Below are positions 2,888 to 40,966 of a stretch of DNA of 64,000 bases, in pieces; position 1 is the first letter of the stretch, and every line of letters starts with the position of its first letter. The DNA is from Ilumatobacteraceae bacterium (lineage in GTDB: Bacteria > Actinomycetota > Acidimicrobiia > Acidimicrobiales > Ilumatobacteraceae): assembly GCA_043740085.1 (NCBI GenBank), contig JAYUCY010000094.1:2325-66324 (forward strand). The letters run 5' to 3'. A program made the translations under genes and the position numbers. The notes beneath the pieces were generated by a model. The model was not told the origin of the DNA. It was given only the letters and a program-made list of their open reading frames with translations, and made no database searches.

Positions 2888-2957
2888 TTCACCACGATGG
2901 TTGAGACCCGTCCCCCGCTCACGTCGGGGGCAGGCCCGTTCCATCTGATGGAGACGA

Positions 2958-4028
2958 ATGGCACAACTCATCGAACGTCCACTGCACAGCGGGCTGCCCT
3001 ACAGTGCCCAGATGCGCCGTCTCGTGGGTTTGTTGTTTGCCGCTGCACTCGTTGCCTCGTGCAGTTCGTCCAGCGGCGCCGCCAGCGACACCAACGAAGC
3101 GAGTTCCGTCTCGACAATCGCACTAGCCATTGCTTCGGCACCCATGACCTCCGATGTCGTCGCCGAGCCCTCCACCACAGCCATCACAGAGAATACGGCG
3201 ACGGCATCATCGACCGCCGAACCCACAACAAGTAGGCCAGACGTCATCACCGGGCGGTCGTACGACGTGTTTGTTCCCTCCTCGTATAGCGCCAGCACGG
3301 CAATGCCGTTGGTCGTGTTGCTGCACGGTTTCGGCGCCACGGGCGCTATCCAAGAGGCCTACTTTCAGCTGCAGCCGCTGGCCGAGAGCCGTGGCTTTCT
3401 CTACGTGCACCCTGACGGCACGATCAACGCAATCAACAAGCGGTTCTGGAACGCGACCAACGCCTGCTGTGGTTTCGGCTCCACCGTTGACGATGTGGCG
3501 TACCTCACGGCGCTGGTGAAGGACGTGCAGAGCAGCTACAACGTTGATCCGAAACGTACCTTCTTCGTCGGCCACTCCAACGGCGGCTTTATGTCGTACC
3601 GAATGGCGTGTGACCGCGCCGACATGGTCGCTGCCATCGTCAGCCTGGCCGGCGCAACGTGGGACGACAACACGAAGTGCAACCCCTCGGAACCGGTGAG
3701 CGTGCTGCAGATCCACGGTACGGCCGACGGAACGATTGGCTTCGAGGGCGGCACACTGCTGGGCAACGATCATCCGGGAGCGCGCGAGACCGTGGCCACC
3801 TGGTCTGCCAACAACGGGTGCACGGGTTCCGCCACAGAACTGCCCACTCCGCTCGACCTCGAAGCCAACATCGCCGGCGACGAATCAATCGCCACTCAAT
3901 TCAGCGGGTGCCCCGTCGGCGGCGCGGTCGAGTTGTGGGCCATCCCTGACGCCTCGCACATTCCAGCAGTGTCGACAACGTTCGGCGCCGACATCATCGA
4001 CTTTCTGTTCGACCATCCCAAGCCGTAA
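2958..4028 (+). CDS. secreted lipoprotein, alpha/beta-hydrolase esterase (PHB-depolymerase/LpqC-like family)
   Basis: Lipobox LVASCSSS. HGFGATG oxyanion region and GHSNGGFMSYRMACD nucleophile elbow. Confidence 0.75.
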   Translation: MAQLIERPLHSGLPYSAQMRRLVGLLFAAALVASCSSSSGAASDTNEASSVSTIALAIASAPMTSDVVAEPSTTAITENTATASSTAEPTTSRPDVITGRSYDVFVPSSYSASTAMPLVVLLHGFGATGAIQEAYFQLQPLAESRGFLYVHPDGTINAINKRFWNATNACCGFGSTVDDVAYLTALVKDVQSSYNVDPKRTFFVGHSNGGFMSYRMACDRADMVAAIVSLAGATWDDNTKCNPSEPVSVLQIHGTADGTIGFEGGTLLGNDHPGARETVATWSANNGCTGSATELPTPLDLEANIAGDESIATQFSGCPVGGAVELWAIPDASHIPAVSTTFGADIIDFLFDHPKP

Positions 4029-4030
4029 TT

Positions 4031-4963
4031 GTGCGTCGAGTAGCAGCCGCTCTGGTGATCTGTGCGTTCACGATGGGTGCCTGTTCCGACGATCACGAAG
4101 CGCTGACTCGCACCACCGAGCCGACTGCCGTCGTGTCGACGTCGCACCCGGTGTCGACGCTCGAATCAGCACCTGATCCGGTGGCCGGCCGGCCCTTCGA
4201 CGTCTATCTGCCGTCCGCATACGACGGCATCACAGCGCTGCCGCTGGTGATCCTGCTGCATGGGTTCGGCGTCACCGGAGCGATGCAGGACGACTTTTTT
4301 CGTCTACGCGGCCTTGCCGAGTCCCGCCGCTACTTGATGGTGAGCCCCGACGGAACACGCAACCCCGAGGGCGCGCCCTTCTGGAACGCGACAGACGTGT
4401 GCTGCGGGTTCGGCGCAACGGTTGACGACTCCGCCTACCTGGCGGCCGTGATCCAACAAGTGCAATCGGACTACGCCGTTGATGCACAGAAGGTTTTCGT
4501 CGTCGGTTTTTCCAACGGCGGTTTCATGGCGTACCGGATGGCCTGCGACGATGCCGACCTCATTGCCGGCATCGTCAGCATCAGCGCGGCGACGTTTCTC
4601 GACACGGCGCGGTGTACGCCCACGTCACCGGTAAATGTTGTCGAAGTTCATGGCACCAACGACGAGACCATCACCTATGAGGGCGGCACGTTCGAGGGAA
4701 CCGCTCATCCCGGTGCCGAACAGACAGTTGCGGCATGGGCCGCGTACAACGGCTGTGCCATCTCACCCAAGACCACCCCTGCGGCACTCGACTTGGACCG
4801 CACACTCATCGGCAACGAGACGCGCGTCACTCGCTACCAAAACTGCCCGGCGGGCGGCGCGGTGGAACTATGGACGATTGTGGGCGGCACACACGTCCCC
4901 GAACTGTCGAGCTCATTCAGCGAACAGGTCATCGACTACCTCCTCGCCCACCCGAAACCCTGA
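4031..4963 (+). CDS. secreted lipoprotein esterase, tandem paralogue of 2958..4028
   Basis: GTG start 3 nt after the previous stop. Lipobox TMGACSDD, HGFGVTG and GFSNGGFMAYRMACD. Collinear with its neighbour along the whole catalytic domain. Confidence 0.75.
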   Translation: MRRVAAALVICAFTMGACSDDHEALTRTTEPTAVVSTSHPVSTLESAPDPVAGRPFDVYLPSAYDGITALPLVILLHGFGVTGAMQDDFFRLRGLAESRRYLMVSPDGTRNPEGAPFWNATDVCCGFGATVDDSAYLAAVIQQVQSDYAVDAQKVFVVGFSNGGFMAYRMACDDADLIAGIVSISAATFLDTARCTPTSPVNVVEVHGTNDETITYEGGTFEGTAHPGAEQTVAAWAAYNGCAISPKTTPAALDLDRTLIGNETRVTRYQNCPAGGAVELWTIVGGTHVPELSSSFSEQVIDYLLAHPKP

Positions 4964-5477: not shown

Positions 5478-6374
5478 ATGGAACCAGCCCGCGCTCTCGC
5501 AGCCGCCCTCGAACCCGTCGTCGGCCAGGTGTATTTCTCCCCCGAATGCCACGCCGGCTACGCCGCGCTGGGGTTCGCTGTCAGCGTCAATCAGGCTGGT
5601 GGTGTTGCGCTGCCCGATGGGCCGGCCTACTTCACCAGTCGCGGCTCGGTGATGGGCCAGGTTCCGGGCGAAGTGGTCGCGGCCGCGTTTGCTGTGTTCA
5701 ACCCCGCTGCGGTCATCCCATCTGTGCGTTATGGCTGGACGCTCACTGACGCCGCCACCATCTGCCAGGCACGCGACGACGGCGCCATTGCACAGTTGGA
5801 ACGGCTGCTGGGCACGGCACCGGCAGGTGTCGAGCGCGCCAGCGCCATTCTCACCCGCGCCGTCGAGCCACTGCGGCCAGAAGGGCGTCCACTCTACGCG
5901 GGCGTGTGTTCGCTGCCGATGCCGGCCACTGACCTGGGCGTGGTGTGGCGTCTCGGCGACCAACTTCGCGAGTACCGCGGCGACAGCCACACGGCGGCCT
6001 GGATCAGCCTCGGAATCGATGCCACCGAGATCGGCTTGCTCAGCGAGCTGTATTGGGGACTTCCAATGCGCAGCTACAGCCGCACCCGCTCCTGGAGCGA
6101 CGAGCAGTTCGAGGCCGCACATCAACGGTTGCGGTCACGCGGGTTGGTCGACGAGATCGGTTTCACGACCGCCGGTCGCCGACTACGCGAAGAAGTCGAG
6201 ATCAACACCGACCTGCAGATGTCTGGCATCGTCAGCGGGATGGGCAGCGGTTTGCAAGAACTCGTCGACATCCTCACGCCGTGGGGCGAAGCAATCCGCG
6301 CCGGCCACGGCTACCCCGCGTCGGGTCCGCACGACCTTGCCAACCTCGCTTCCGACAGGGCCGGCGGCCACTGA
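5478..6374 (+). CDS. conserved hypothetical protein (helical, actinobacterial type)
   Basis: Track ORF 5184..6374, started at the ATG at 5478 (MEPARALAAALEPVVGQVYFSPECHAGYAALGF...). The upstream part overlaps the GNAT gene antisense. I recognise no catalytic motif. Confidence 0.6.
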   Translation: MEPARALAAALEPVVGQVYFSPECHAGYAALGFAVSVNQAGGVALPDGPAYFTSRGSVMGQVPGEVVAAAFAVFNPAAVIPSVRYGWTLTDAATICQARDDGAIAQLERLLGTAPAGVERASAILTRAVEPLRPEGRPLYAGVCSLPMPATDLGVVWRLGDQLREYRGDSHTAAWISLGIDATEIGLLSELYWGLPMRSYSRTRSWSDEQFEAAHQRLRSRGLVDEIGFTTAGRRLREEVEINTDLQMSGIVSGMGSGLQELVDILTPWGEAIRAGHGYPASGPHDLANLASDRAGGH

Positions 6375-23135: not shown

Positions 23136-23190
23136 CGAAGTGACGCGGTGCTGCGTCTACGACCTGGGGTTGTGAGAAACAAGCGCGTCA
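23136..23190 (+). repeat. 55-nt repeat, copy 1 (upstream of tRNA-Thr)
   Basis: CGAAGTGACGCGGTGCTGCGTCTACGACCTGGGGTTGTGAGAAACAAGCGCGTCA. The ends TGACGCG / CGCGTCA are self-complementary. Confidence 0.7.
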
Positions 23191-23227: not shown

Positions 23228-23282
23228 CGAAGTGACGCGAGGTTGCGTCTGCGACCTGGGATTGTGAGGAACAAGCGCGTCA
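23228..23282 (+). repeat. 55-nt repeat, copy 2
   Basis: CGAAGTGACGCGAGGTTGCGTCTGCGACCTGGGATTGTGAGGAACAAGCGCGTCA. 49 of 55 positions match copy 1. It is followed by TATGTT, a possible -10 for the tRNA. Confidence 0.7.
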
Positions 23283-23333
23283 TATGTTGGCTATGGGCGC
23301 GGCAGGGCGGCCGTTACACTCGGCGGACGAGTC

Positions 23334-23406
23334 GCCGGGTTAGCTCAGCTGGCAGAGCAACGCACTTGTAATGCGTAGGTCAAGGGTTCGATTCCCTTAC
23401 CCGGCT
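23334..23406 (+). tRNA. tRNA-Thr (anticodon UGU)
   Basis: Manual cloverleaf: acceptor GCCGGGT/ACCCGGC, D arm GCTC-AGCTGGCA-GAGC, anticodon arm ACGCA-CTTGTAA-TGCGT, variable AGGTC, T arm AAGGG-TTCGATT-CCCTT, discriminator T. CCA is encoded at 23407-23409. Confidence 0.9.
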
Positions 23407-23485
23407 CCACATAACACCAGGTAGATGGCACGTTTGCTGAGACTGCGCTTCTCCACAAAGTGGGTCGGCCAAGATTCGGGTGGTT

Positions 23486-23735
23486 TGCCGGTCCTGAAGG
23501 GATTGATGCACGAACGCGGCAGGGTGCGTGGGAGTAGATCGTGCAGCTGCCGTGCGATCCTCTGACGGGTACCGCCAAGCAAGTGAGCCGTACGGTGGAC
23601 GGCACCAAACGCGAAGCCCGGCGCGCTGGCCGAGCTGGTGACGAAGGTTTCGGCAGGCAAGATCTCGTCAACGACGACAACGCTCGACCAGCTGCTGGTG
23701 CAATGGCTCGAGCTCCTTCGTCTTCACGCACTCGT
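23486..23735 (+). pseudogene. tyrosine-integrase N-terminal stub (frameshifted, catalytic domain absent)
   Basis: Reading across two frames gives ...GRVRGSRS / VQLPCDPLTGTAKQVSRTVDGTKREARR / ALAELVTKVSAGKISSTTTTLDQLLVQWLELL. This is the arm-binding/SAM-like N-terminus typical of actinobacterial phage/ICE integrases. No R-H-R-Y catalytic region follows. Confidence 0.5.
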
Positions 23736-23782
23736 AAACGCCTTTTGGTGGCGTCCGGGCGTGTATCCGCGTGGCCGGGCAC

Positions 23783-24067
23783 CTACTCGGCAGTAGTCGG
23801 CACAGTTCTCGTGCCGACTAGCGAAGACTTTGCGAGTACTCGGAAGCCGTCTCGTGAACTCGGCACGTTCAGCGCCCCGATCTCTGCCGAGTAGACCGCC
23901 GAGTTACGGACATCGAGCTGATCCTGCGGTCGCCAGAGAGCAAGACGGGTGGAGTTCAAGAGAGATCTGACGTCGCCCGACTGTGTTCTTCGCACGATCG
24001 TGGCGTTCGCGAACTCCGCGGTGGGGTGCTCGTTGTCGGGGTTGAGGACGCGTCGTGGGTTCGCCAT
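23783..24067 (-). CDS. hypothetical protein (94 aa), no recognisable domain
   Basis: Track ORF 23783..24118, started at the ATG at 24067 (MANPRRVLNPDNEHPTAEFANATIVRR...). Third-position G/C is high in the first half. It may be a fragment. Confidence 0.3.
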   Translation of the reverse strand: MANPRRVLNPDNEHPTAEFANATIVRRTQSGDVRSLLNSTRLALWRPQDQLDVRNSAVYSAEIGALNVPSSRDGFRVLAKSSLVGTRTVPTTAE

Positions 24068-24197
24068 CTCCGCTCGCGGATGAGGAGCAGCTCGCGAGCC
24101 TGATCGCCTTGATGCCACGCATCGAACCGCAACTCGTGCCGGACATCGCGATTGTGCCGTGGCGTCGCACCCAGCTGCTGGTGGTCAACGTTCAGCT

Positions 24198-24361
24198 CAC
24201 GCGGCGCGAACAGCTCCAACGACTGCTCAGCGAGTTCGACCGGCACGCCGACAGCCTTCTCGACGCGTTCGCGCACGTCGACGGCGTCGTCGGCACGCCG
24301 ATCACCTAATACACCGCGGAACTGCGGCGCGAGCTGGGCATCACCTGACCCATCGGTCGTC
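24198..24361 (+). repeat. 164-bp direct repeat, copy A (degenerate 3-prime tail of a SEC-C-type gene)
   Basis: Matches 28918-29081 at a constant offset of 4720 nt with 4 mismatches (24217, 24309, 24310, 24336). Here the TAC codon of copy B is TAA, so track ORF 24055..24309 ends 15 codons early. Confidence 0.85.
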
Positions 24362-24534
24362 GCGGCGCGTCGACGCCCACCTCCCGGGCTTCTTGTGTGG
24401 GAGCGCGCATCGGGCGCATCGCGTTGGGTTGTCCTTACGGAAAGATGCCGTCTGGGGTCAAGGAGGCTGCGCCTCCAGCCCAACCGTCTGTGTCGTGGAA
24501 ACCTCAGCGGTCGCAGTCGTCGATGTCGTCGTCA

Positions 24535-24589
24535 ATAATGATGGCTGTCTACGCCATTATGGCCCATAATGATGTATACGACGATCATT
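24535..24589 (+). promoter_or_regulatory. AT-rich operator/promoter region of hipBA
   Basis: ATAATGATG occurs at 24535 and 24566. Reverse copies are CCATTAT (24555-24561) and GATCATT (24583-24589), and a GCCATTATGGC palindrome lies at 24553-24563. An RBS GGAGAGGAG precedes the ATG at 24604. Confidence 0.4.
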
Positions 24590-24603
24590 GGAGAGGAGTT
24601 GTT

Positions 24604-24897
24604 ATGCCGAAGCTGAACGCTCGTACGCAGCGCTCTGCCGCACAATTCGGGACACACCTCGCCACCTGGCGCAAACTACTGAACCTCACCGCTGACCAGG
24701 TAGCGCAACGGGCCGACATTGACCGCGGCACACTGCGTCGCCTCGAGAAGGGTGACCCGGTCGGCTTCGACGTAGTGCTGTCCGTCGCCCGGGCTCTCGG
24801 AGTGCTCGACAAACTCGTCGACGCCGTCGACCCGTGGGAATCTGACCTTGGTCGTGCACGCGCCGGCGCCGTGCTCCCCAAACGGGTGTACCGATGA
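24604..24897 (+). CDS. hipB: XRE-family helix-turn-helix antitoxin (HipB-like)
   Basis: 97 aa with HTH LRKLLNLTADQVAQRADIDRGTLRRLEKGD. The stop overlaps the hipA start (ATGA at 24894-24897). Confidence 0.75.
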   Translation: MPKLNARTQRSAAQFGTHLATWRKLLNLTADQVAQRADIDRGTLRRLEKGDPVGFDVVLSVARALGVLDKLVDAVDPWESDLGRARAGAVLPKRVYR

Positions 24898-26234
24898 TCG
24901 ACCGACTGGACGTACACATCGAACTCGACGGGCGAACACACCCGGCGGGTACCGCCTATTTCGTTCAACGTCGCGGCGGACCGGTGGCGACAACGTTCGC
25001 GTACTCCGTCGAATACCTCGCGAACCCGACAGCAATCAGCATCGATCCGAACCTGCCGCTCGTCAGCGGCCAACAAGCCACCAACGGCATGCCGGGAGCG
25101 TTCCAGGATTGCGCACCAGACAGGTGGGGACGCAACCTCATTCTGAAACGATCCCGGACCAGCGTCAGCGCCGGTGATCGAACCCCGGCGCTGAACGACG
25201 CCGACTTCCTCGCCGTGGTGAGCGACATCACCCGCCAAGGGGCGCTTCGGTTCTCACTGTCAGGCACCGCCGAATTCATCGACGCTGGTCTGCGTGTGCC
25301 GAAACTGATCGCGTTGCCCCGGCTGCTCTACGCTGTTGACCGGCTGGCCGACGACGACGAAAGTGACGAAGCGGTCAAAGTGCTGCTCGACGCCGGCTCC
25401 GGGTCGCTCGGCGGCGCACGACCAAAGGCGTCAGTGCTCGACAACGGGCGGCTGCTGCTGGCAAAGTTTCCGCATCGCAGCGACGGCTGGGATGTGATGG
25501 GCTGGGAAAAAACAGCGTTGGACATCGCCGGCCGGGCAGGTATCAACGTTCCGGGTAGACGCCTCGTTGGTCTCGACGGCCGCCAGATCTTGTTGCTCGA
25601 ACGATTCGACCGCGACGACCAGCACCGCATCGCCTACATCAGCGCGATGACACTCGTCGGTGGGCGCATCGGTGAGGACTACGACTACGCCGACATCGCA
25701 GCCACTCTTCCCGATTTCGGGTCCCGAGTGGCTGCTGATCTCGACGAGATGTTCCGGCGTGTTGTCGTGAGCTGCGCCATCCACAACACCGACGACCACT
25801 TTCTCAACCATGGGTTCCTTGGCAGCGCGGCCGGATGGAAACTGGCGCCTGTTTTTGACATCAACCCGAACCCTGATCTCAACGAAGGCAGGGTCACGTC
25901 GATCGCCGCGGCCAGCCGCGCTGAAGACGAACCAGCAGGACTGATAGCGGTAGCAGGCGACTTCCGTCTCACTGAAAGCGCCGCCCGTTCCATCGTGACT
26001 GAGGTGGTCGACGCCGTTGCCGACTGGGCTGACATCGCCACCGCCAACGGGATCAGCGCCCGCGAGCGCGAACAGTTCCGACCGATGTTCAACGACCGGA
26101 TCGCAGCGCTCGCCAGCACCGCCCTCCTGCCCCGGCCGGGGCCAGCTCGTGCTGCCTCGACGACACAGCGGCGAGTTCCCAAGGGCTCCCCGACCGCAGG
26201 CCAGTTTGCCAAGAAAGACACCCATCACCCCTGA
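24894..26234 (+). CDS. hipA: HipA-family serine/threonine kinase toxin
   Basis: HipA N-terminal domain (DCAPDRWGRNLI). P-loop-like SGSLGGARPKASV, catalytic IHNTDDHFLNHGF, and Mg-binding LAPVFDINPN. Confidence 0.85.
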   Translation: MIDRLDVHIELDGRTHPAGTAYFVQRRGGPVATTFAYSVEYLANPTAISIDPNLPLVSGQQATNGMPGAFQDCAPDRWGRNLILKRSRTSVSAGDRTPALNDADFLAVVSDITRQGALRFSLSGTAEFIDAGLRVPKLIALPRLLYAVDRLADDDESDEAVKVLLDAGSGSLGGARPKASVLDNGRLLLAKFPHRSDGWDVMGWEKTALDIAGRAGINVPGRRLVGLDGRQILLLERFDRDDQHRIAYISAMTLVGGRIGEDYDYADIAATLPDFGSRVAADLDEMFRRVVVSCAIHNTDDHFLNHGFLGSAAGWKLAPVFDINPNPDLNEGRVTSIAAASRAEDEPAGLIAVAGDFRLTESAARSIVTEVVDAVADWADIATANGISAREREQFRPMFNDRIAALASTALLPRPGPARAASTTQRRVPKGSPTAGQFAKKDTHHP

Positions 26235-26386
26235 CGGACCGGACGACCAGGAGGCTCAATTCCAACTCGCAACGGTCAAAGCGTCTCACCCGAAGCGAAT
26301 TGCAGCTGCGACGAGCCCGTCCGTCGCGCGTCACTGAAGTGCCTACTTGAGACTGCGGGCATGCTGCGACGGTAGCGTCGGCACGC

Positions 26387-29068
26387 ATGGCGCCTGACCT
26401 TGACCGGATCAGCTTTCTGTTTGGTGAGGACGCTCTCACCGACCTCGACGCGTACGACTTCGACGTCGAGTCAGACGTCGTTGCAGCCATCGAGCGGTTC
26501 GTGGCCATGCCGAGCGGCTCAGCGGTGGATGGCATGCGTTCGGCCGTCCGCACCATCGCGGTCCGGCAAGTTCTTGATGACGACCCGCCCGAGGCGTGGC
26601 GGGCCGCGATCCGCATGCGCGATGCTGGGTTCGATCGCGACGAAGTGCTCCGCCAGCTGTCGATGGTGATCTCCGAGCACGTCATCGAAAGCCTCTCCAC
26701 GGTCGAGCCGAGCGACCCGGCACAGCTGGCCTTCGCGCTGGACGCGCTCCCGTTGCCCTCGGCCGAACAGATCGCCGAGGTACTGGTCGGCATCGCCCGC
26801 GCCACCCCTGGGCTCGACGCCGACGACCACATCCAGCAAGCCGTTGCGGCGCTCGGGTCGGGAGCGGGCGGGCGAGTCCTGCAGGCCCTGGTCGAGCGCG
26901 TACTCGACGCTCTCGTGGAAGGCCCGTTGCACTGGTTGGCCGATGATGTGACGGTCGCCTTCTTCGACACGATTGCCGGCCGAACGTTCACTCACCGTTT
27001 CAACGACTCCGAACGCGAGATGGGCGTGCTCAGCATCTCCGTCGACATCGCCGGGTATCAGCGCTTCGACAGCGTGCGCCTCGCCGACGGAACCGAGCTC
27101 GAGCAGTTCTCAGTGGAGCACGGTCACATGGCATGGCGTGGCCCTGAGGGTTGGCTTGGTGGTTTCACTGCGGACGACCTTCTCGCTGTCACGGCGGAGT
27201 TCACTACGCCGAGCGGCGACCAACGTGTCGATGCGACGGTCACGATCCGCGTGGTCGCCGACTCTCCGGCAGTGACTGGCGAACTCACCTCGGCGGTACG
27301 CGCTGCCTACGACGCAGAGCAGCACGAGCACGGCCTGCCGGTTGCGGCGGAAGATCTGGTTGTGTGGCTCTGCCACCACCACCCGGAAATGTTCAGGGTT
27401 CCGCTGCCACCGATCTCCGACCTGATCGAACATGCCGGGCTGGAGCTGAACGGCGGCTTCATGGCGCATGACGATTCGGTGTGGCGGCAGGATCTGTTGG
27501 TACGACGAACTCGCCGGCTGCTCGACATCGTGCCCGAGCCGCACTGGCGCAAGGTGCTCGGCCGCGCCATCGAGGTGCTTGCCGACCCAGAGGCGGAGGT
27601 TGACCTCATTCGCGCATCACTCGACGAGTGCGCAGAACCCGCGACGCTCGACGAGCTCGTCGACCTGTTGATCCCCGAGTATCTGGCACCGCAGGACGAG
27701 TACGACCTCGCCGGTGTCGATGCGCCCGGTCGCGCGTTCGAGCTCGTCCACCGGGCGATCGCAGTCGCCCGTCGACCGCGTCAGGTGGCCACGGCTGAAT
27801 ACCTCGCATGTGGTTTACGTGAGCGGTGCGGGCAGCCCATGGCCGCCCTGGAGCACCTCACCCGGGCGGTGGAGGCGCAACCCCGGCTCGGGCCGATTGT
27901 CGAGCGGATGGGGTGGTACTGCTTCGACCGAGGTGATGCCCGCGGCGCGATGCGTTGGTGGCGTGAGCTGGAGGAGGCTCACCCAGCGGCGAGCACCATT
28001 GCTGGGTTCCTCGCTCGAGCTGATGGCAATCCCAAGGTTGGGCGCAACGACCCGTGCTGGTGCGGGTCTGGCCGGAAGTTCAAGCAGTGCCATCAGGGCA
28101 CGAGCGACCAGCCGGCGCTTCCCGACCGGGTGGGCTGGTTGTGCCGCAAGGCATCAGCTTGGGTCGAACACTCCACCGGCGAGGCACGTAATCTGGTGAC
28201 GGATCTGGCCATCGCATACGTCACCGGAGACCCCGACGCCGATGCATCCGACGTGGTGAGTGCTGACGAGCGCAGGATGCAGCAGCAGTTCGAGGTTGCG
28301 TTTGCCGACCCGCTGCTGTTCGATGCGACGCTCCACGAAGGGGGCCAGTTCCGGCGTTTTCTGTCCGAACGCGGCGACCTGCTACCCGATGACGAGCGGC
28401 TCCTCGCCACAGCGTGGCTCACCGTCGATCGCAGTGTGCACGAGGTGCTGTCGGTCGAGCGTGGTGTTGGACTGCAGCTGCGCAATCTCGCCACCGGAGA
28501 TGTTGTCGATGTACGCGAACGCACCGCGTCGAAGCAGGCGCACGTGGGCGAGCGTTACTGTGCGCGCGTGGTGCCCGATGGTGCATCGCACCAGATCATC
28601 GGCGGCGTGTTCGAGGTGCGCACCGGCCACGAACAGCAAGTACTGGACCTGTGCCTGGCGGCCGACGCTGCGGCGTTGTGTGCATGGGCTGGTGCACTGA
28701 ACCAGCCACCACGGATCGTTCACCGACCGGGCATGATCGACTCGATGCTGGACCGAAGCGCGCTGCAAGCCGCGCTGGACGAAGGGGAATTCGCCGACGA
28801 GACCGAGATGCTGTCGCGACTCAACGCCGAACTGTCGCGGCAAGCCCAATCACGGTGGCTTGACGACAACGTTCCGGCTCTCGGAGGCCTGACCCCACGG
28901 CAGGCCGCCGCCGACCCCACGCGGCGCGAACAGCTCGAACGACTGCTCAGCGAGTTCGACCGGCACGCCGACAGCCTTCTCGACGCGTTCGCGCACGTCG
29001 ACGGCGTCGTCGGCACGCCGATCACCTACGACACCGCGGAACTGCGGCGCGAGCTAGGCATCACCTGA
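26387..29068 (+). CDS. 893-aa SEC-C-motif (zinc knuckle) protein of unknown function
   Basis: An internal GRNDPCWCGSGRKFKQCH lies at codons ~552-569 (DNA 28055-28093 for C..CH). The C-terminal WLDDNVPALGGLTPRQAA segment is followed by the repeated tail. I recognise no enzymatic motif. Confidence 0.75.
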   Translation: MAPDLDRISFLFGEDALTDLDAYDFDVESDVVAAIERFVAMPSGSAVDGMRSAVRTIAVRQVLDDDPPEAWRAAIRMRDAGFDRDEVLRQLSMVISEHVIESLSTVEPSDPAQLAFALDALPLPSAEQIAEVLVGIARATPGLDADDHIQQAVAALGSGAGGRVLQALVERVLDALVEGPLHWLADDVTVAFFDTIAGRTFTHRFNDSEREMGVLSISVDIAGYQRFDSVRLADGTELEQFSVEHGHMAWRGPEGWLGGFTADDLLAVTAEFTTPSGDQRVDATVTIRVVADSPAVTGELTSAVRAAYDAEQHEHGLPVAAEDLVVWLCHHHPEMFRVPLPPISDLIEHAGLELNGGFMAHDDSVWRQDLLVRRTRRLLDIVPEPHWRKVLGRAIEVLADPEAEVDLIRASLDECAEPATLDELVDLLIPEYLAPQDEYDLAGVDAPGRAFELVHRAIAVARRPRQVATAEYLACGLRERCGQPMAALEHLTRAVEAQPRLGPIVERMGWYCFDRGDARGAMRWWRELEEAHPAASTIAGFLARADGNPKVGRNDPCWCGSGRKFKQCHQGTSDQPALPDRVGWLCRKASAWVEHSTGEARNLVTDLAIAYVTGDPDADASDVVSADERRMQQQFEVAFADPLLFDATLHEGGQFRRFLSERGDLLPDDERLLATAWLTVDRSVHEVLSVERGVGLQLRNLATGDVVDVRERTASKQAHVGERYCARVVPDGASHQIIGGVFEVRTGHEQQVLDLCLAADAAALCAWAGALNQPPRIVHRPGMIDSMLDRSALQAALDEGEFADETEMLSRLNAELSRQAQSRWLDDNVPALGGLTPRQAAADPTRREQLERLLSEFDRHADSLLDAFAHVDGVVGTPITYDTAELRRELGIT

Positions 29069-29081
29069 CCCATCGGTCGTC
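28918..29081 (+). repeat. 164-bp direct repeat, copy B (authentic 3-prime end of the SEC-C gene plus 13 nt)
   Basis: See copy A. 160 of 164 positions are identical. Weaker similarity continues about 12 nt further with a 1-nt indel. Confidence 0.85.
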
Positions 29082-29089
29082 CCGAGCGT

Positions 29090-29339
29090 CGACTGGTGCC
29101 CCGGCGAGGTGGGATCGGCGTTCGTGACGATCTGGCCGCCAGCCGCTGCGATCGCGTCGAGTGTCGGCTCTGGCGGGAGCATCGCGAAGACGCCGAGTGG
29201 GGTGAGGACCGTTCGCGACTCGGTTCGACATCAACTCCAGCGCCGAGAAACTGAACGCATCGCCCTGCACGATCAGCGCCGTCTTGTCACCGAAACGCCG
29301 GGCGGCCTCCGGAACAATCTCACCGATCGTCGATGCCAT
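29090..29339 (-). pseudogene. acyl-CoA synthetase (AMP-binding) N-terminal remnant
   Basis: MASTIGEIVPEAARRFGDKTALIVQGDAFSFSALELMSNRVAN is a typical ligase N-terminus. The frame then breaks. A second frame reads VLTPLGVFAMLPPEPTLDAIAAAGGQIVTNAD, and nothing further follows. Confidence 0.5.
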
Positions 29340-29404: not shown

Positions 29405-29530
29405 TTCGCGCACAACCCGAAGGTCGCAAGTTGTCAGATGGACATCGTTGGTGGTGTGCAGTTGGTCAACGGTTGGAAGGCGTCGATCGTGTCGGGGATC
29501 GACGACCACTCGCGTTCGTGATCTCGGCGC
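29405..29530 (+). mobile_element. IS481-like (rve integrase core) transposase fragment
   Basis: CQMDIVGGVQLVNGWKASIVSGIDDHSRS then a stop. This resembles the W-Q-x-D...DDHSR segment of IS481/IS3-type DDE transposases. Only about 40 codons are present. Confidence 0.4.
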
Positions 29531-29706
29531 ATGGCGCCAGGAGCCGGCCACCTCGTTCGTCGAAATCGTCAGCGCCGAGAACATCGGCGCCAACACCTAC
29601 CTGATCACTTCAGGATCGAACCGATCAGGGCCGCGACAGCCTCGTTCCACCAGCCCCGCGACATTGCGGTTGAGGACGTCGATGATCCGAAGATCTAGGC
29701 GGCCGC

Positions 29707-32518: not shown

Positions 32519-34054
<1,536 letters not shown>

Positions 34055-37723: not shown

Positions 37724-39280
37724 GTGACAGATCAGGACACACTCGGCGAGCCGATCGTCAAGCAGGGTAGGACGCCGCAGATCATGCCGTTCGACATGTC
37801 CGGGATCGTCCGCACCGAGGACGGCGTTCTCCGCTACGGAAACCTCCCGGGATCGCTGCTCGAAATGTTCCGCACCTCGGTGGACCGCACTCCCGATCGA
37901 GAGTGCATCGTCGTGCTCGGTGGCGAGCGCGTCACGTACCAGCAGGTGTGGGATCGTGCCGCACGTGTCGCCGGTGGGCTCGCCGCAGCTGGCGTCCGCC
38001 CTGGGGACCGCGTGGCGAACCGTCACGGCAACAGCCTCGACTGGTGCCTCGGGTTCTGGGGCACGCTCATGGCCGGCGCTGTGGTCGTGCCCGTGAACAC
38101 CCGCTTCTCCGAGTCTGAGGTCGACTACGTCGTCACCGACTCCGGCGCGTCGCACGTTCTGCTTCCCGACGAGCCGTTGCCCGACGGCGACCCGCTCGTC
38201 GTCGACGTGGAGCGCAACGCGTTGGCCGCGATCTTCTACACGAGCGGCACGACCGGCTTCCCGAAGGGTGCGATGACCACCCACGAGAACTTCCTCTCCA
38301 ACAGCGAGACCTGCCGACGAATCATGTCCCTGCCGACCGATACCCATCTCCGCAACCTCGTGTCGGTGCCGCTATTCCACGTGACGGGGTGCAACAGCCA
38401 GCTGATCGTTACCACGCAACTGGGCGGTACCACAGTCATCATGCCGGCGTTCGAGGTGCAGGCATTTCTCCGGGCAACCGTCGACGAGCAGATCAACATC
38501 CTCACGTCCGTCCCGGCGATCTTCTGGCTCGCCATGAGCCAGCCGAACTTCCCCGACTTCGACCTGAGCAACGTGCGCTTCGTCACCTACGGCGGTGCCC
38601 CCACTGCTCCGGATGTGGTCGCGCGGCTGCGGTCATCGTTCCCGAACGCCCGCCTCGGCAACGGCTTCGGTCTCACGGAGACGTCGTCGGTGTCGACGTT
38701 CCTCCCCGATGAGTACGCGGAGTTGCGTCCCGAGACGGTCGGCTTCACGGCGCCGCCCGTCGAGGTCGACCTCCATGACGTCGACCCCACCTCGGGGGTC
38801 GGCGAACTGTTGATCCGCGGCCAGAACGTCGTCACCGGCTACTGGAACAAGCCGGAGCAGACGACGCACACGTTCGTCGACGGGTGGCTCCACACCGGTG
38901 ACCTGGCCCGTGTGGACGACGACGGGTTCGTTCAGATCGTCGACCGCAAGAAGGACATGGTCAACCGCGGTGGCGAGAACGTCTACTGCGTGGAGGTGGA
39001 GAACGCGCTCGTCGAGCACCCGCAGGTGTTCGAGGTCGCGGTGCTCGGTGTGCCCGACGAGATGATGGGGGAAAAGGTTGGCGCAGTGGTCGTGCCCCGA
39101 CCTGGGACCGACCCTGATCCGCGCGAGATCCGCGCCTTCGTGAAGGCGCGGATCGCCGACTTCAAGGTGCCGCAGTTCATCGCGTTCCGCAAGGACCCGC
39201 TGCCGCGCAACGCTGGCGGCAAGGTGCTGAAGCCGGTGTTGCGAGAAGAAACCGAGTGGGGCGAGCAGCTCCGCGGCTGA
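37724..39280 (+). CDS. AMP-dependent acyl-CoA synthetase/ligase
   Basis: GTG start at 37724 preceded by AGGGGG. IFYTSGTTGFPKGAMTTHEN, LHTGDLARVDDDGFVQIVDRKKDMV and GKVLK motifs. Confidence 0.85.
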   Translation: MTDQDTLGEPIVKQGRTPQIMPFDMSGIVRTEDGVLRYGNLPGSLLEMFRTSVDRTPDRECIVVLGGERVTYQQVWDRAARVAGGLAAAGVRPGDRVANRHGNSLDWCLGFWGTLMAGAVVVPVNTRFSESEVDYVVTDSGASHVLLPDEPLPDGDPLVVDVERNALAAIFYTSGTTGFPKGAMTTHENFLSNSETCRRIMSLPTDTHLRNLVSVPLFHVTGCNSQLIVTTQLGGTTVIMPAFEVQAFLRATVDEQINILTSVPAIFWLAMSQPNFPDFDLSNVRFVTYGGAPTAPDVVARLRSSFPNARLGNGFGLTETSSVSTFLPDEYAELRPETVGFTAPPVEVDLHDVDPTSGVGELLIRGQNVVTGYWNKPEQTTHTFVDGWLHTGDLARVDDDGFVQIVDRKKDMVNRGGENVYCVEVENALVEHPQVFEVAVLGVPDEMMGEKVGAVVVPRPGTDPDPREIRAFVKARIADFKVPQFIAFRKDPLPRNAGGKVLKPVLREETEWGEQLRG

Positions 39281-39307: not shown

Positions 39308-40966
39308 TTACGGGGACGGCTGGACGCGCAGCTCGCGGCGGAGGATCTTGCCGGTCACCGTCTTCGGCAACTCGTCGACGAACTCGATCGAGCGCGGGTA
39401 CTTGTAGGCCGACATCCGCTCCTTGCAGAATTTGATCAGCTCCGCCTCGTCGGTCTGCTCACCTGGCCGGAGGCTGACGAAGGCCTTGACTGTCTCTCCC
39501 CGGTACTCGTCGGGCACACCGACGACTGCGGCCTCGCGGACCGCGGGATGCTGGTAGAGCACGTCCTCGACCTCGCGCGGCCACACCTTGTAGCCGGCAG
39601 CGATGATCATGTCCTTCTTGCGGTCGACGACGTAGTACCAGCCTTCGGGATCCATGAAACCGACGTCACCGGTGTACAGGCTCCCGCCTGGCAACGCATG
39701 AGCTGTCTCCTCTGGCTTGTTCCAGTAGCCAGCGACGACCTGCGGACCGCTCGTCACGAACTCACCGATCTCGCCAACAGGTACGTCGACGCCCTGCTCG
39801 TCCACGACGCGGACGATCGTGTTGAAGATCGGCACGCCGACGGAGAGTGCGCCCGATGTCGGGTCTACCGGCGCACGCGCACCCATCGGTACCCCGTGTG
39901 AGGGTGAGGTCGTCTCGGTGAGGCCGTAGATGTTGTGGATGTACGCGCCCACCTCGCTCTCGAATCGCTCGACCATGGTCGGGGCGATCGGCGCACCACC
40001 GCTGTAGATCTTCGTCAGCGACGAGAGGTCGCGTCCCTTGCATGACGGGTCGTTCATCAGCGCGATGAACACAGTGATCGCACCGACCGTGAACGTGGGG
40101 CGGTAACGCTCGATCAGGTCGAGCACGGTCACAGGGTCGAAGCGGTACCCGAGCACGATCGGCATCGGCACCAAGAGCCCGACCGTGAGGTGGGCGATGA
40201 GGCCCGTGATGTGGAACAGCGGAGCGATGGCGAGTACGACGTCGTCGGGCGTGAGCGACATCCACGTCCGGTACGCCTCCGAGTTGAACACGACGTTGCG
40301 GTGCGTGTTCATCGCGCCCTTCGGCGGCCCGGTCGTTCCCGAGGTGTATGTGAGGAAGGCGACGTCGTCGGCGCTCAGCGACACCGCCGGCGGGCGCTGT
40401 CCGTCGTGCAGGGCGATCAGGTCGACCAGATCGAGCGTCGCGTCCTGTGCAGCCTTCACCGACCCCGCCAACATCGCAGGCCGCTCGTCGCCAAGGTAGT
40501 CGAGCTCGCTCGTGGTGATCACCGTGCGGACCCCTGGACACGCGGCCACGACGTCGCGGGCGACGTCGACGTACAACGACTCGAGCGTCACGAGTACGCA
40601 AGCACCGGAGTCCTCGAGCGCATAGGTGAGCTCGCGGCCCTTGTTCATCGGGTTGACCGGCACCACGACGCCACCGGCTTTCCACGTGGCGAGGACGCCG
40701 AGGACGAATTGCGGCACGTTCTGCATGTAGATCGCGACGCGGTCACCGCGAGCGAAACCGTGGTGGATGATCGCCGCTGCCAGCGCGTCGGAGGCCCGGT
40801 CGACCTCGGCGACCGTCATGGTGCGCCCGAAGAAGTGGACCAGCGGACTCTCCGGTGACGACGCGCACGAGTGACGGAACATGTCGAGCGCGTTGGCGAA
40901 GGGGATCTCGATGTCGGTCGGCGTCCCTGGCGGATATTGGCGTAACCACGGTCGCTGCTCGTACAT
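39308..40966 (-). CDS. long-chain fatty-acid-CoA ligase (FadD-like)
   Basis: LTYTSGTTGPPKGAMNTHRN, LYTGDVGFMDPEGWYYVVDRKKDMI and GKILRRELR motifs. Confidence 0.9.
   Translation of the reverse strand: MYEQRPWLRQYPPGTPTDIEIPFANALDMFRHSCASSPESPLVHFFGRTMTVAEVDRASDALAAAIIHHGFARGDRVAIYMQNVPQFVLGVLATWKAGGVVVPVNPMNKGRELTYALEDSGACVLVTLESLYVDVARDVVAACPGVRTVITTSELDYLGDERPAMLAGSVKAAQDATLDLVDLIALHDGQRPPAVSLSADDVAFLTYTSGTTGPPKGAMNTHRNVVFNSEAYRTWMSLTPDDVVLAIAPLFHITGLIAHLTVGLLVPMPIVLGYRFDPVTVLDLIERYRPTFTVGAITVFIALMNDPSCKGRDLSSLTKIYSGGAPIAPTMVERFESEVGAYIHNIYGLTETTSPSHGVPMGARAPVDPTSGALSVGVPIFNTIVRVVDEQGVDVPVGEIGEFVTSGPQVVAGYWNKPEETAHALPGGSLYTGDVGFMDPEGWYYVVDRKKDMIIAAGYKVWPREVEDVLYQHPAVREAAVVGVPDEYRGETVKAFVSLRPGEQTDEAELIKFCKERMSAYKYPRSIEFVDELPKTVTGKILRRELRVQPSP

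Follow-up and report, generated by a model that had tools for sequence, protein, structure and literature searches.

Pseudogene stumps that arise by tandem duplication or unequal crossing-over combined with illegitimate deletion are known from bacterial accessory regions. In Shewanella putrefaciens CN-32, HipAB was shown to stabilise the composite island CGI48/GI21 at tRNA-Trp (PMC8978831), and three-gene Hip modules (hipBST), along with other HipA-family organisations, have been described (PMC8262856, PMC10627512). Here we consider a locus in a 64,000-nt stretch of DNA, called the window below, from the genome of an Ilumatobacteraceae bacterium (assembly GCA_043740085.1, contig JAYUCY010000094.1, positions 2,325 to 66,324 of the forward strand; a metagenome-assembled genome, MAG). 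In this window two near-identical direct repeats surround a hipB-hipA toxin-antitoxin (TA) module and a gene for an 893-aa protein with a SEC-C motif. An earlier note on this DNA had read the arrangement as a discrete hipB-hipA-SEC-C cassette bounded by the repeats and able to loop out, and had offered tandem duplication followed by deletion as one explanation. Our analysis indicates that the repeats are quite probably a duplication-and-deletion scar in a decaying integrative element at a tRNA-Thr gene, the result of ordinary rearrangement. The explanation by duplication and deletion was thus of the right class, while the cassette did not withstand comparison with relatives.

The repeat pair and its two edges

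The features on which the argument turns are given below with window coordinates and strand.

23785..24199, plus strand: Schlafen/AlbA_2 + HATPase_c_4 pseudogene, N-terminal ~155 codons, with frameshifts and stops, cut at copy A
24198..24364, plus strand: repeat copy A, a dead 3' stump of the SEC-C gene (codons 845-893, stop codon and 16 nt) with a Tyr codon changed to a stop
24604..24897, plus strand: hipB, 97-aa helix-turn-helix (HTH) antitoxin (Pfam HTH_31 and HTH_3; NCBIfam couple_hipB, weak)
24894..26234, plus strand: hipA, predicted 446-aa HipA-family Ser/Thr kinase toxin that looks intact (HipA_C 2.5e-38, Couple_hipA 2e-6)
26387..29068, plus strand: SEC-C-motif protein, 893 aa, intact (Pfam SEC-C motif at residues 553-570 only)
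28918..29084, plus strand: repeat copy B, the functional 3' end of the SEC-C gene
29098..29339, minus strand: probable AMP-dependent ligase N-terminal stump, frameshifted and cut at copy B (translation MASTIGEIVPEAARRFGDKTALIV...)
29432..29531, plus strand: insertion sequence (IS) transposase scrap, ~100 nt of the rve integrase core, 84-85% identical to multi-copy loci in relatives

A repeat search and pairwise alignment placed copy A at 24198-24364 and copy B at 28918-29084, 4720 nt apart throughout. Over the 164 nt of the earlier note (24198-24361 and 28918-29081) four positions differ, which bears out the identity given there. The mismatches between A and B lie at 24217 (C/G), 24309-24310 (AT/CG), 24336 (G/A) and, outside the 164 nt, 24362 (G/C), and the longest uninterrupted block of identity is 93 nt. 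Both ends are sharp in the alignment, with similarity extending slightly further than first described, to 24364/29084, and stopping 16 nt past the SEC-C stop codon. Local alignment of the sequences downstream of A and B was no better than that of shuffled sequence; a more extended, older duplication reaching past the repeat ends is thereby ruled out. The whole genome (3.47 Mb, 155 contigs) holds two copies of the repeat, and in relatives the sequence occurs only as the 3' end of SEC-C. The repeat is therefore not a widespread dispersed element, a possibility that the earlier note had raised against its own reading.

Pfam profile searches found hipB, hipA and the body of the SEC-C gene between the copies, as had been claimed. 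Copy B corresponds to residues 845-893 of the 893-aa open reading frame (ORF) 26387..29068, its stop codon and a further 13-16 nt, so that its description as the true 3' end of the gene holds. The region carries the C-terminal motif ITYDTA..LRRELG, conserved in all SEC-C homologues. Copy A lies in the same reading frame and is joined in frame to unrelated upstream sequence, giving an 84-codon ORF (24055..24309) that ends early because the TAC GAC of B is TAA TAC in A. Copy A is thus the inactivated orphan tail that had been described, and the upstream sequence to which it is fused proved to be the truncated Schlafen/AlbA_2 pseudogene.

The identity of this pseudogene defines the left edge of copy A. 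Window positions 23758-24199 are 83% identical to a locus in a relative (G005, L019 2635-2167), and tblastn matches to residues 10-156 are spread over more than one frame and interrupted by stops. The intact 510-aa protein of G005 matches SLFN_AlbA_2 and HATPase_c_4, and its gene sits in an element with an integrase, an excisionase and a TrwC-like relaxase. Because the homology stops exactly at 24199 within a frameshifted gene, the left edge of copy A is, to judge from this alignment, a deletion junction with a truncated gene, in frame by chance.

The right edge of copy B is probably an illegitimate junction as well. It is followed by the stump at 29098..29339, which matches positions 3-37 of the Pfam AMP-binding profile (E=0.008, 15 bits, under the cut-off); comparisons of the stump with the window's own ligases and with PDB were not significant. 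The IS scrap lies ~350 nt from this edge; similar loci occur in G011, G002 and G028, and a relative's copy matches PF00665 rve at 6e-14. Three intact ligases are encoded further right, at 32519-34054, 37886-39247 and 39326-40885.

The two copies are each other's closest sequences. They are 2.4% apart (97.6% identity), while each is about 11-15% from the tails of G006, L050 and L057, and orthologous tails are 84-89% identical to A or B. Because of this difference, A and B can be placed as sister sequences that arose within this lineage, after its split from the sampled relatives. Polarised against 20 or more homologues, three of the four differences prove to have arisen in A: a change from Glu to Gln, and CG to AT, which turns the invariant Tyr-Asp of ITYDT into stop-Tyr. 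The sole change derived in B is in a synonymous Leu codon. The degenerative changes thus fall in the truncated copy, and the pattern is as expected if one copy (A) is dead and the other (B) live.

Two further assemblies cover parts of the locus. L059 (ENA ERZ28573532) starts inside copy A, with the TAATAC of that copy, spans hipBA and ends within SEC-C; over these 3.9 kb it differs from the window by 3 substitutions. L060 (Logan SRR23617272), a contig found in two samples, runs from a truncated hipA through SEC-C and copy B to position 29165 and shows 4 substitutions and one 1-nt insertion in 4.1 kb. Since divergence among these strains is far below that between A and B, the duplication would not be very recent.

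Relatives, strains and the fate of the two modules

Some of the relatives carrying HipA or SEC-C homologues were reached through 90% protein clusters. SEC-C without hipBA is found in G006, and likewise in L061 and L062, where tRNA-Thr is followed by an integrase stump, an internally deleted AlbA_2 gene, 52 nt, an intact SEC-C gene, 40 nt, an attR arm and the tRNA 3' repeat (attR). The G006 SEC-C is 89.5% identical to that of the window in nucleotides and 87.6% in amino acids. On its contig C6 (L018 2451-6561, on to C6:31440) the tRNA 3' half occurs three times and delimits at least two tandem islands, the first of which, of ~4 kb, holds the integrase stump, the deleted AlbA_2 and SEC-C. This layout is likely the older arrangement.

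In other relatives SEC-C, or what is left of it, stands upstream of hipBA. Loci L052-L056 and L066 read udk, tRNA-Thr, ~100 nt, an internally deleted SEC-C remnant (window 28258-28501 + 28982-29084), the same 40 nt as in G006, an intact hipBA and unrelated genes. Their HipA falls within the window's 90% cluster (89.8% aa identity for L066), and their hipBA is 90.8% identical in nucleotides. In L057, with a HipA of the same cluster, an uninterrupted SEC-C 3' end (28642-29084, cut by the contig edge) precedes the 40 nt and hipBA. In L050, L051, L064 and L065 (HipA 89%) a scrap of SEC-C (27644-27734) lies directly upstream of hipBA. Downstream of hipBA, loci of the L050 type carry a degenerate tRNA-Thr 3' repeat with an arm like the attR arm of G006, sulfate-assimilation genes and another SEC-C remnant. 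In L064 (9528-17052) and L065 (2878-10402) the SEC-C pieces flank hipBA with a cysC/transporter/cysN/cysD block between them, the downstream piece (residues 560-686 + 790-893) lying ~5 kb downstream. As these pieces are collinear and do not overlap, they could represent either one SEC-C gene split by insertion or two decayed copies.

Elsewhere the modules are apart. In L058, hipBA (91% nt) is followed by an unrelated gene of 817 aa; a distant relationship of this gene to SEC-C was ruled out (BLASTP E=0.18). Fifteen further SEC-C loci (62-75% aa, other Acidimicrobiia) showed no hipBA within the available sequence, at most 6 kb on each side, several contigs being shorter. SEC-C upstream of hipBA is, on this comparison, a recurrent arrangement older than the lineage splits, and the two modules appear separable and decay independently. 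G006 can be regarded as effectively an empty site for hipBA, because the 40-nt spacer that precedes hipB in L057 there adjoins the arm that follows hipA in L050; this is a composite drawn from several contigs.

These comparisons speak against a discrete cassette. The order in relatives is SEC-C and then hipBA, copy A sits where SEC-C lies in them, and the A edge, and probably the B edge, is a truncated-gene junction and not the border of a unit. Divergence from the same relatives is similar for the two modules (hipBA 9-11% nt, SEC-C 10.5-14% nt). Because hipBA and SEC-C are about equally diverged, they look like old residents, which argues against one recent joint arrival.

The loop-out product that the cassette predicts, with the AlbA_2 stump, one tail and the ligase stump, was not found in 52 genomes of the genus or in the genome contig collection. 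Exact scans of JGI metagenome contigs gave 0 matches with the window's tail end and, with an L057-type tail junction, the already known contig alone; neither HipA nor SEC-C nor the copy A fusion ORF had an exact match in an index of 153 billion genes. The empty site foreseen in the earlier note, a single tail with neither hipBA nor the SEC-C body, is thus absent from the relatives' genomes and contigs scanned.

The earlier note had also looked to polymorphism among strains. A polymorphic strain does exist, but its deletion ignores the repeats: L060 lacks 1,120 bp (23909-25028) between 2-nt CG microhomologies. This is the sole strain-level polymorphism we found. Gone with it are the remainder of the AlbA_2 stump, all of copy A and hipB, and hipA up to codon 45, and the 1-nt insertion in L060, 8 nt before the hipA stop (window 26226), shifts the frame of the hipA 3' end. 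Since L060 carries a microhomology deletion, decay of the element appears to proceed through illegitimate deletion and to be ongoing. The loss of hipB together with truncation and frameshift of hipA is an indirect hint that HipB may neutralise HipA toxicity. RecA-dependent deletion of hipBA and SEC-C between the repeats could occur, at low efficiency at most, and post-segregational toxicity from an intact hipBA would presumably select against such loss.

Origin of the two tails

In the scenario we favour, two SEC-C copies would once have stood on either side of hipBA, within a composite integrative element at tRNA-Thr. The two copies would most likely have come about by tandem duplication of a SEC-C-hipBA unit, or else by tandem re-integration of the element, which is conceivable because tandem islands at tRNA-Thr are seen directly in G006. 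Deletions would have followed. An illegitimate deletion of at least ~3.6 kb would have fused AlbA_2 codon ~156 to SEC-C codon 845 and so produced copy A, which afterwards would have gained its stop codon and a missense change. On the B side, a probable second illegitimate junction would have joined SEC-C, 16 nt past its stop, to the probable AMP-ligase stump near the IS scrap. The repeats would then be a scar without a function of their own. The repeat, the truncated-gene junction on the A side, the sister relationship of A and B, the gene order in relatives and the separability of the modules are direct observations; the exact order and mechanism of these events, like the addiction effect of hipBA, we infer.

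Several points weigh against this reading. No genome with two intact SEC-C copies, or with any other intermediate, was found, and the path is not uniquely reconstructable. The full ancestral layout (SEC-C, 40 nt, hipBA, attR arm, attR) has been pieced together from several contigs and is present on no single molecule, and this MAG contig is the sole sequence in which the AlbA_2 stump is seen to meet copy A. On the right, the AMP-ligase identity of the stump is probable on a weak profile match. In addition, the similarity between A and B and the similarity to G006 and L057 both fade at about +16 nt, which would be a coincidence if the B-side deletion were random; the SEC-C module may have a preferred breakpoint there.

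Other explanations have to be set against the same evidence. An assembly artefact, in which the MAG contig misjoins or duplicates the SEC-C tail, could be suspected in a genome of 155 contigs, and L059 breaks within copy A, as is typical of assemblers at repeats. However, copy A's own substitutions recur in that independent assembly, a chimeric join would carry the sequence of B, and SEC-C, copy B and the right flank are separately supported by L060, which makes an artefact barely credible. It is also conceivable, though we think it unlikely, that the SEC-C gene ending in copy B was resident beside AlbA_2 and that a 2.15-kb fragment (24200-26353) from a close donor replaced the 3' part of AlbA_2. 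Such a patch would take one replacement event instead of a duplication and two deletions; the AlbA_2 5' part and SEC-C from -33 match the adjacency in G006, which also shows that the site can be without hipBA, and L057 shows that potential donors in which a SEC-C tail precedes hipBA do occur. On the other hand, two illegitimate junctions would be needed in a single event, and no donor with the 166-nt spacer that here separates copy A from hipBA was found. Copy A and the resident tail share 97.6% identity, as against 84-87% for the sampled donors with SEC-C followed by hipBA, so that the donor would have to be an unsampled near-clonal relative, hard to separate from duplication within the lineage.

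If SEC-C had ancestrally stood on both sides of hipBA, recent gene conversion could have homogenised the A and B tails in this lineage. L064 and L065 do carry SEC-C pieces on both sides, yet these are collinear and non-overlapping and may be one split gene, contigs of the L052 type have no SEC-C within 10 kb downstream of hipA, and the conversion would need to stop exactly at both illegitimate junctions; we regard it as improbable. The same two loci might be cited for a circular hipB-hipA-SEC-C element that recombined into the tail of a resident SEC-C paralogue, with the repeats as functional borders. The geometry formally fits, and a 93-nt identity block is enough for RecA recombination. This mobile cassette is nevertheless decidedly improbable: the left edge of A, and probably the right edge of B, are truncated-gene junctions, hipBA and SEC-C are apart in most genomes, and their shared divergence of 9-14% makes neither of them recent. 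Neither a single-tail empty site nor a second insertion turned up in the 52 genomes of the genus, the genome contigs or the two metagenome scans, and the lone polymorphism, in L060, does not use the repeats. Finally, it could be speculated that the adjacency of SEC-C and hipBA in three lineages, with the sharp limits at -33 and +16, reflects a real coupling. This might be functional, if the C-terminal segment of SEC-C, which by eye resembles Xre/MbcA/ParS-like toxin-binding regions, were to modulate HipA. It might equally be recombinational, if the SEC-C 3' end were a preferred site through which hipBA-SEC-C moves into paralogues, guarded by the toxin. We consider coupling in either form highly improbable.

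The surrounding island and known systems

The remaining features of the island and of the hipBA module are as follows.

23334..23409, plus strand: tRNA-Thr (anticodon TGT), the left anchor of the island (ARAGORN; Rfam tRNA 72 bits)
23490..23714, plus strand: tyrosine integrase 5' stump, ~80 codons, matching G011 L021
23711..23736, minus strand: 26-nt scrap of an excisionase-like HTH gene, a 96% match to G005 L019 3303-3278, inside ORF 2933..3385
24365..24530, no strand: lineage-only spacer of 166 nt with no match outside this lineage
24531..24603, plus strand: AT-rich hipBA leader, conserved, with ATAATGATG-type half-sites; presumed HipB operators and promoter
26235..26353, no strand: lineage-only spacer of 119 nt between hipA and the SEC-C module, present only in the window's own genome (G000), L059 and L060

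The site between udk and tRNA-Thr is an island hot spot across the genus, with islands there in relatives too. In the window a tyrosine integrase adjoins the tRNA, as in tRNA-linked islands, here as a stump: positions 23311-23714 give an 82% match to G011 L021 2143-2561, where the homologue is an intact 385-aa Phage_integrase ORF (L021 2320..3477). The stump itself has no Pfam match. The 26-nt scrap was assigned to an excisionase-like gene by eye. An Rfam scan of 22-31.5 kb found nothing besides the tRNA. No attR was found in the window or elsewhere in its genome; it is present in G006. As no copy marks the far border, the element at tRNA-Thr is a fixed remnant and not an intact island.

Direct repeats of 11 nt, of the CCAAGATT(T)CGG type, occur in the att-proximal arms: one copy in the window (23458-23480), two in L060 (88-110) and several in the attR arms of G006 (L018 ~6310-6345) and L050 (~4170-4210). 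They are likely integrase arm-type binding sites whose copy number varies among strains. Between udk and the tRNA, two 55-nt repeats (23136-23190 and 23228-23282) belong to a dispersed family, with similar stretches of ~58 nt on contigs C42, C101, C12, C106 and C77 of the same genome and in G006.

To the right, positions 29.1-64 kb of the window show no synteny with relatives. The core that follows tRNA-Thr islands in G006, G013 and G023 lies here on contig C42 (16113 onward), where it is preceded by an exact 39-nt repeat (C42:16070-16108) of the 3' end of tRNA-Met(CAT) (C150:4052-4128), with no tRNA-Thr repeat. This arrangement suggests that islands at two tRNA genes have recombined with each other, which would explain both the missing attR and the lack of synteny at 29-64 kb.

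The hipBA module itself is laid out as in type II systems, with an HTH gene upstream of and overlapping the kinase gene (4-nt ATGA at 24894) and a kinase that matches Couple_hipA and HipA_C. Inspection of HipA showed a P-loop-like SLGGARPKAS, a catalytic NTDDH and VFDINP, which we take to correspond to the motifs of E. coli HipA. HipA has 7,772 homologues at E<=1e-30, and HipB is 96-98% identical in amino acids to its relatives. Homology to all hipBA relatives begins at 24531-24538, and in these the 166-nt spacer is replaced by the unrelated 40-nt spacer. A simple promoter and terminator scan of the leader gave no sigma-70 consensus. At the other end, homology to other hipBA loci ceases at 26223-26248 and that to the G006 SEC-C begins at 26354. 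The conserved SEC-C module spans 26354-29084; against G006, homology sets in sharply 33 nt upstream of the start codon and ceases 16 nt past the stop. PDB and NCBIfam searches with the SEC-C protein matched the zinc motif only, plus a weak TPR, and 16 homologous loci were found at 62-88% aa identity.

The locus thus offers a decay series, spread over several lineages, of a hipBA-carrying tRNA-linked element, illustrating integrase loss, internal deletions, gene duplication, IS scars and strain-level microhomology deletions. It has little import beyond annotation: a striking direct repeat around a TA module need not mean a mobile cassette, copy A and the 84-codon fusion ORF ought to be annotated as a pseudogene fragment, and hipBA plus SEC-C should not be called a three-gene system. 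The locus is, in our view, what island decay ordinarily leaves behind, and its modest interest lies in how well the example is resolved.

Among described systems, duplication/deletion scars are matched without essential difference. Here too there are near-identical direct copies, one of them truncated and mutated, with the outer A edge inside a truncated gene, an IS scrap nearby and strain-level microhomology deletions. To our knowledge, a scar of this kind involving this SEC-C-motif gene and an Acidimicrobiales MAG host has not been described before. Like integron or other excisable cassettes, the locus has direct repeats around a small gene set. Unlike them, it has no recombinase and no attC-like structure, its repeats are coding sequence and not natural ends, the A edge (and probably the B edge) is an illegitimate junction, and no second insertion site, further context or empty site is known.

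With three-gene Hip modules it shares a HipA-family kinase operon and a third neighbouring gene. The main text of the survey of HipA-family organisations makes no mention of a SEC-C partner (PMC8262856). Here, unlike in those modules, SEC-C is separable, lies on either side of hipBA depending on the lineage and decays independently: sixteen SEC-C loci are without hipBA, intact hipBA stands beside dead SEC-C remnants, and in L058 an unrelated gene follows hipA. On this distribution, hipBA and SEC-C do not form a tripartite TA system. Like CGI48/GI21, the locus carries hipBA as cargo of a composite tRNA-linked island, with tandem or nested islands at one tRNA gene. It differs in that the integrase is a stump, the genome has no attR and the repeats are gene stumps instead of attachment sites; stabilisation by hipBA, demonstrated for CGI48/GI21, we infer here.

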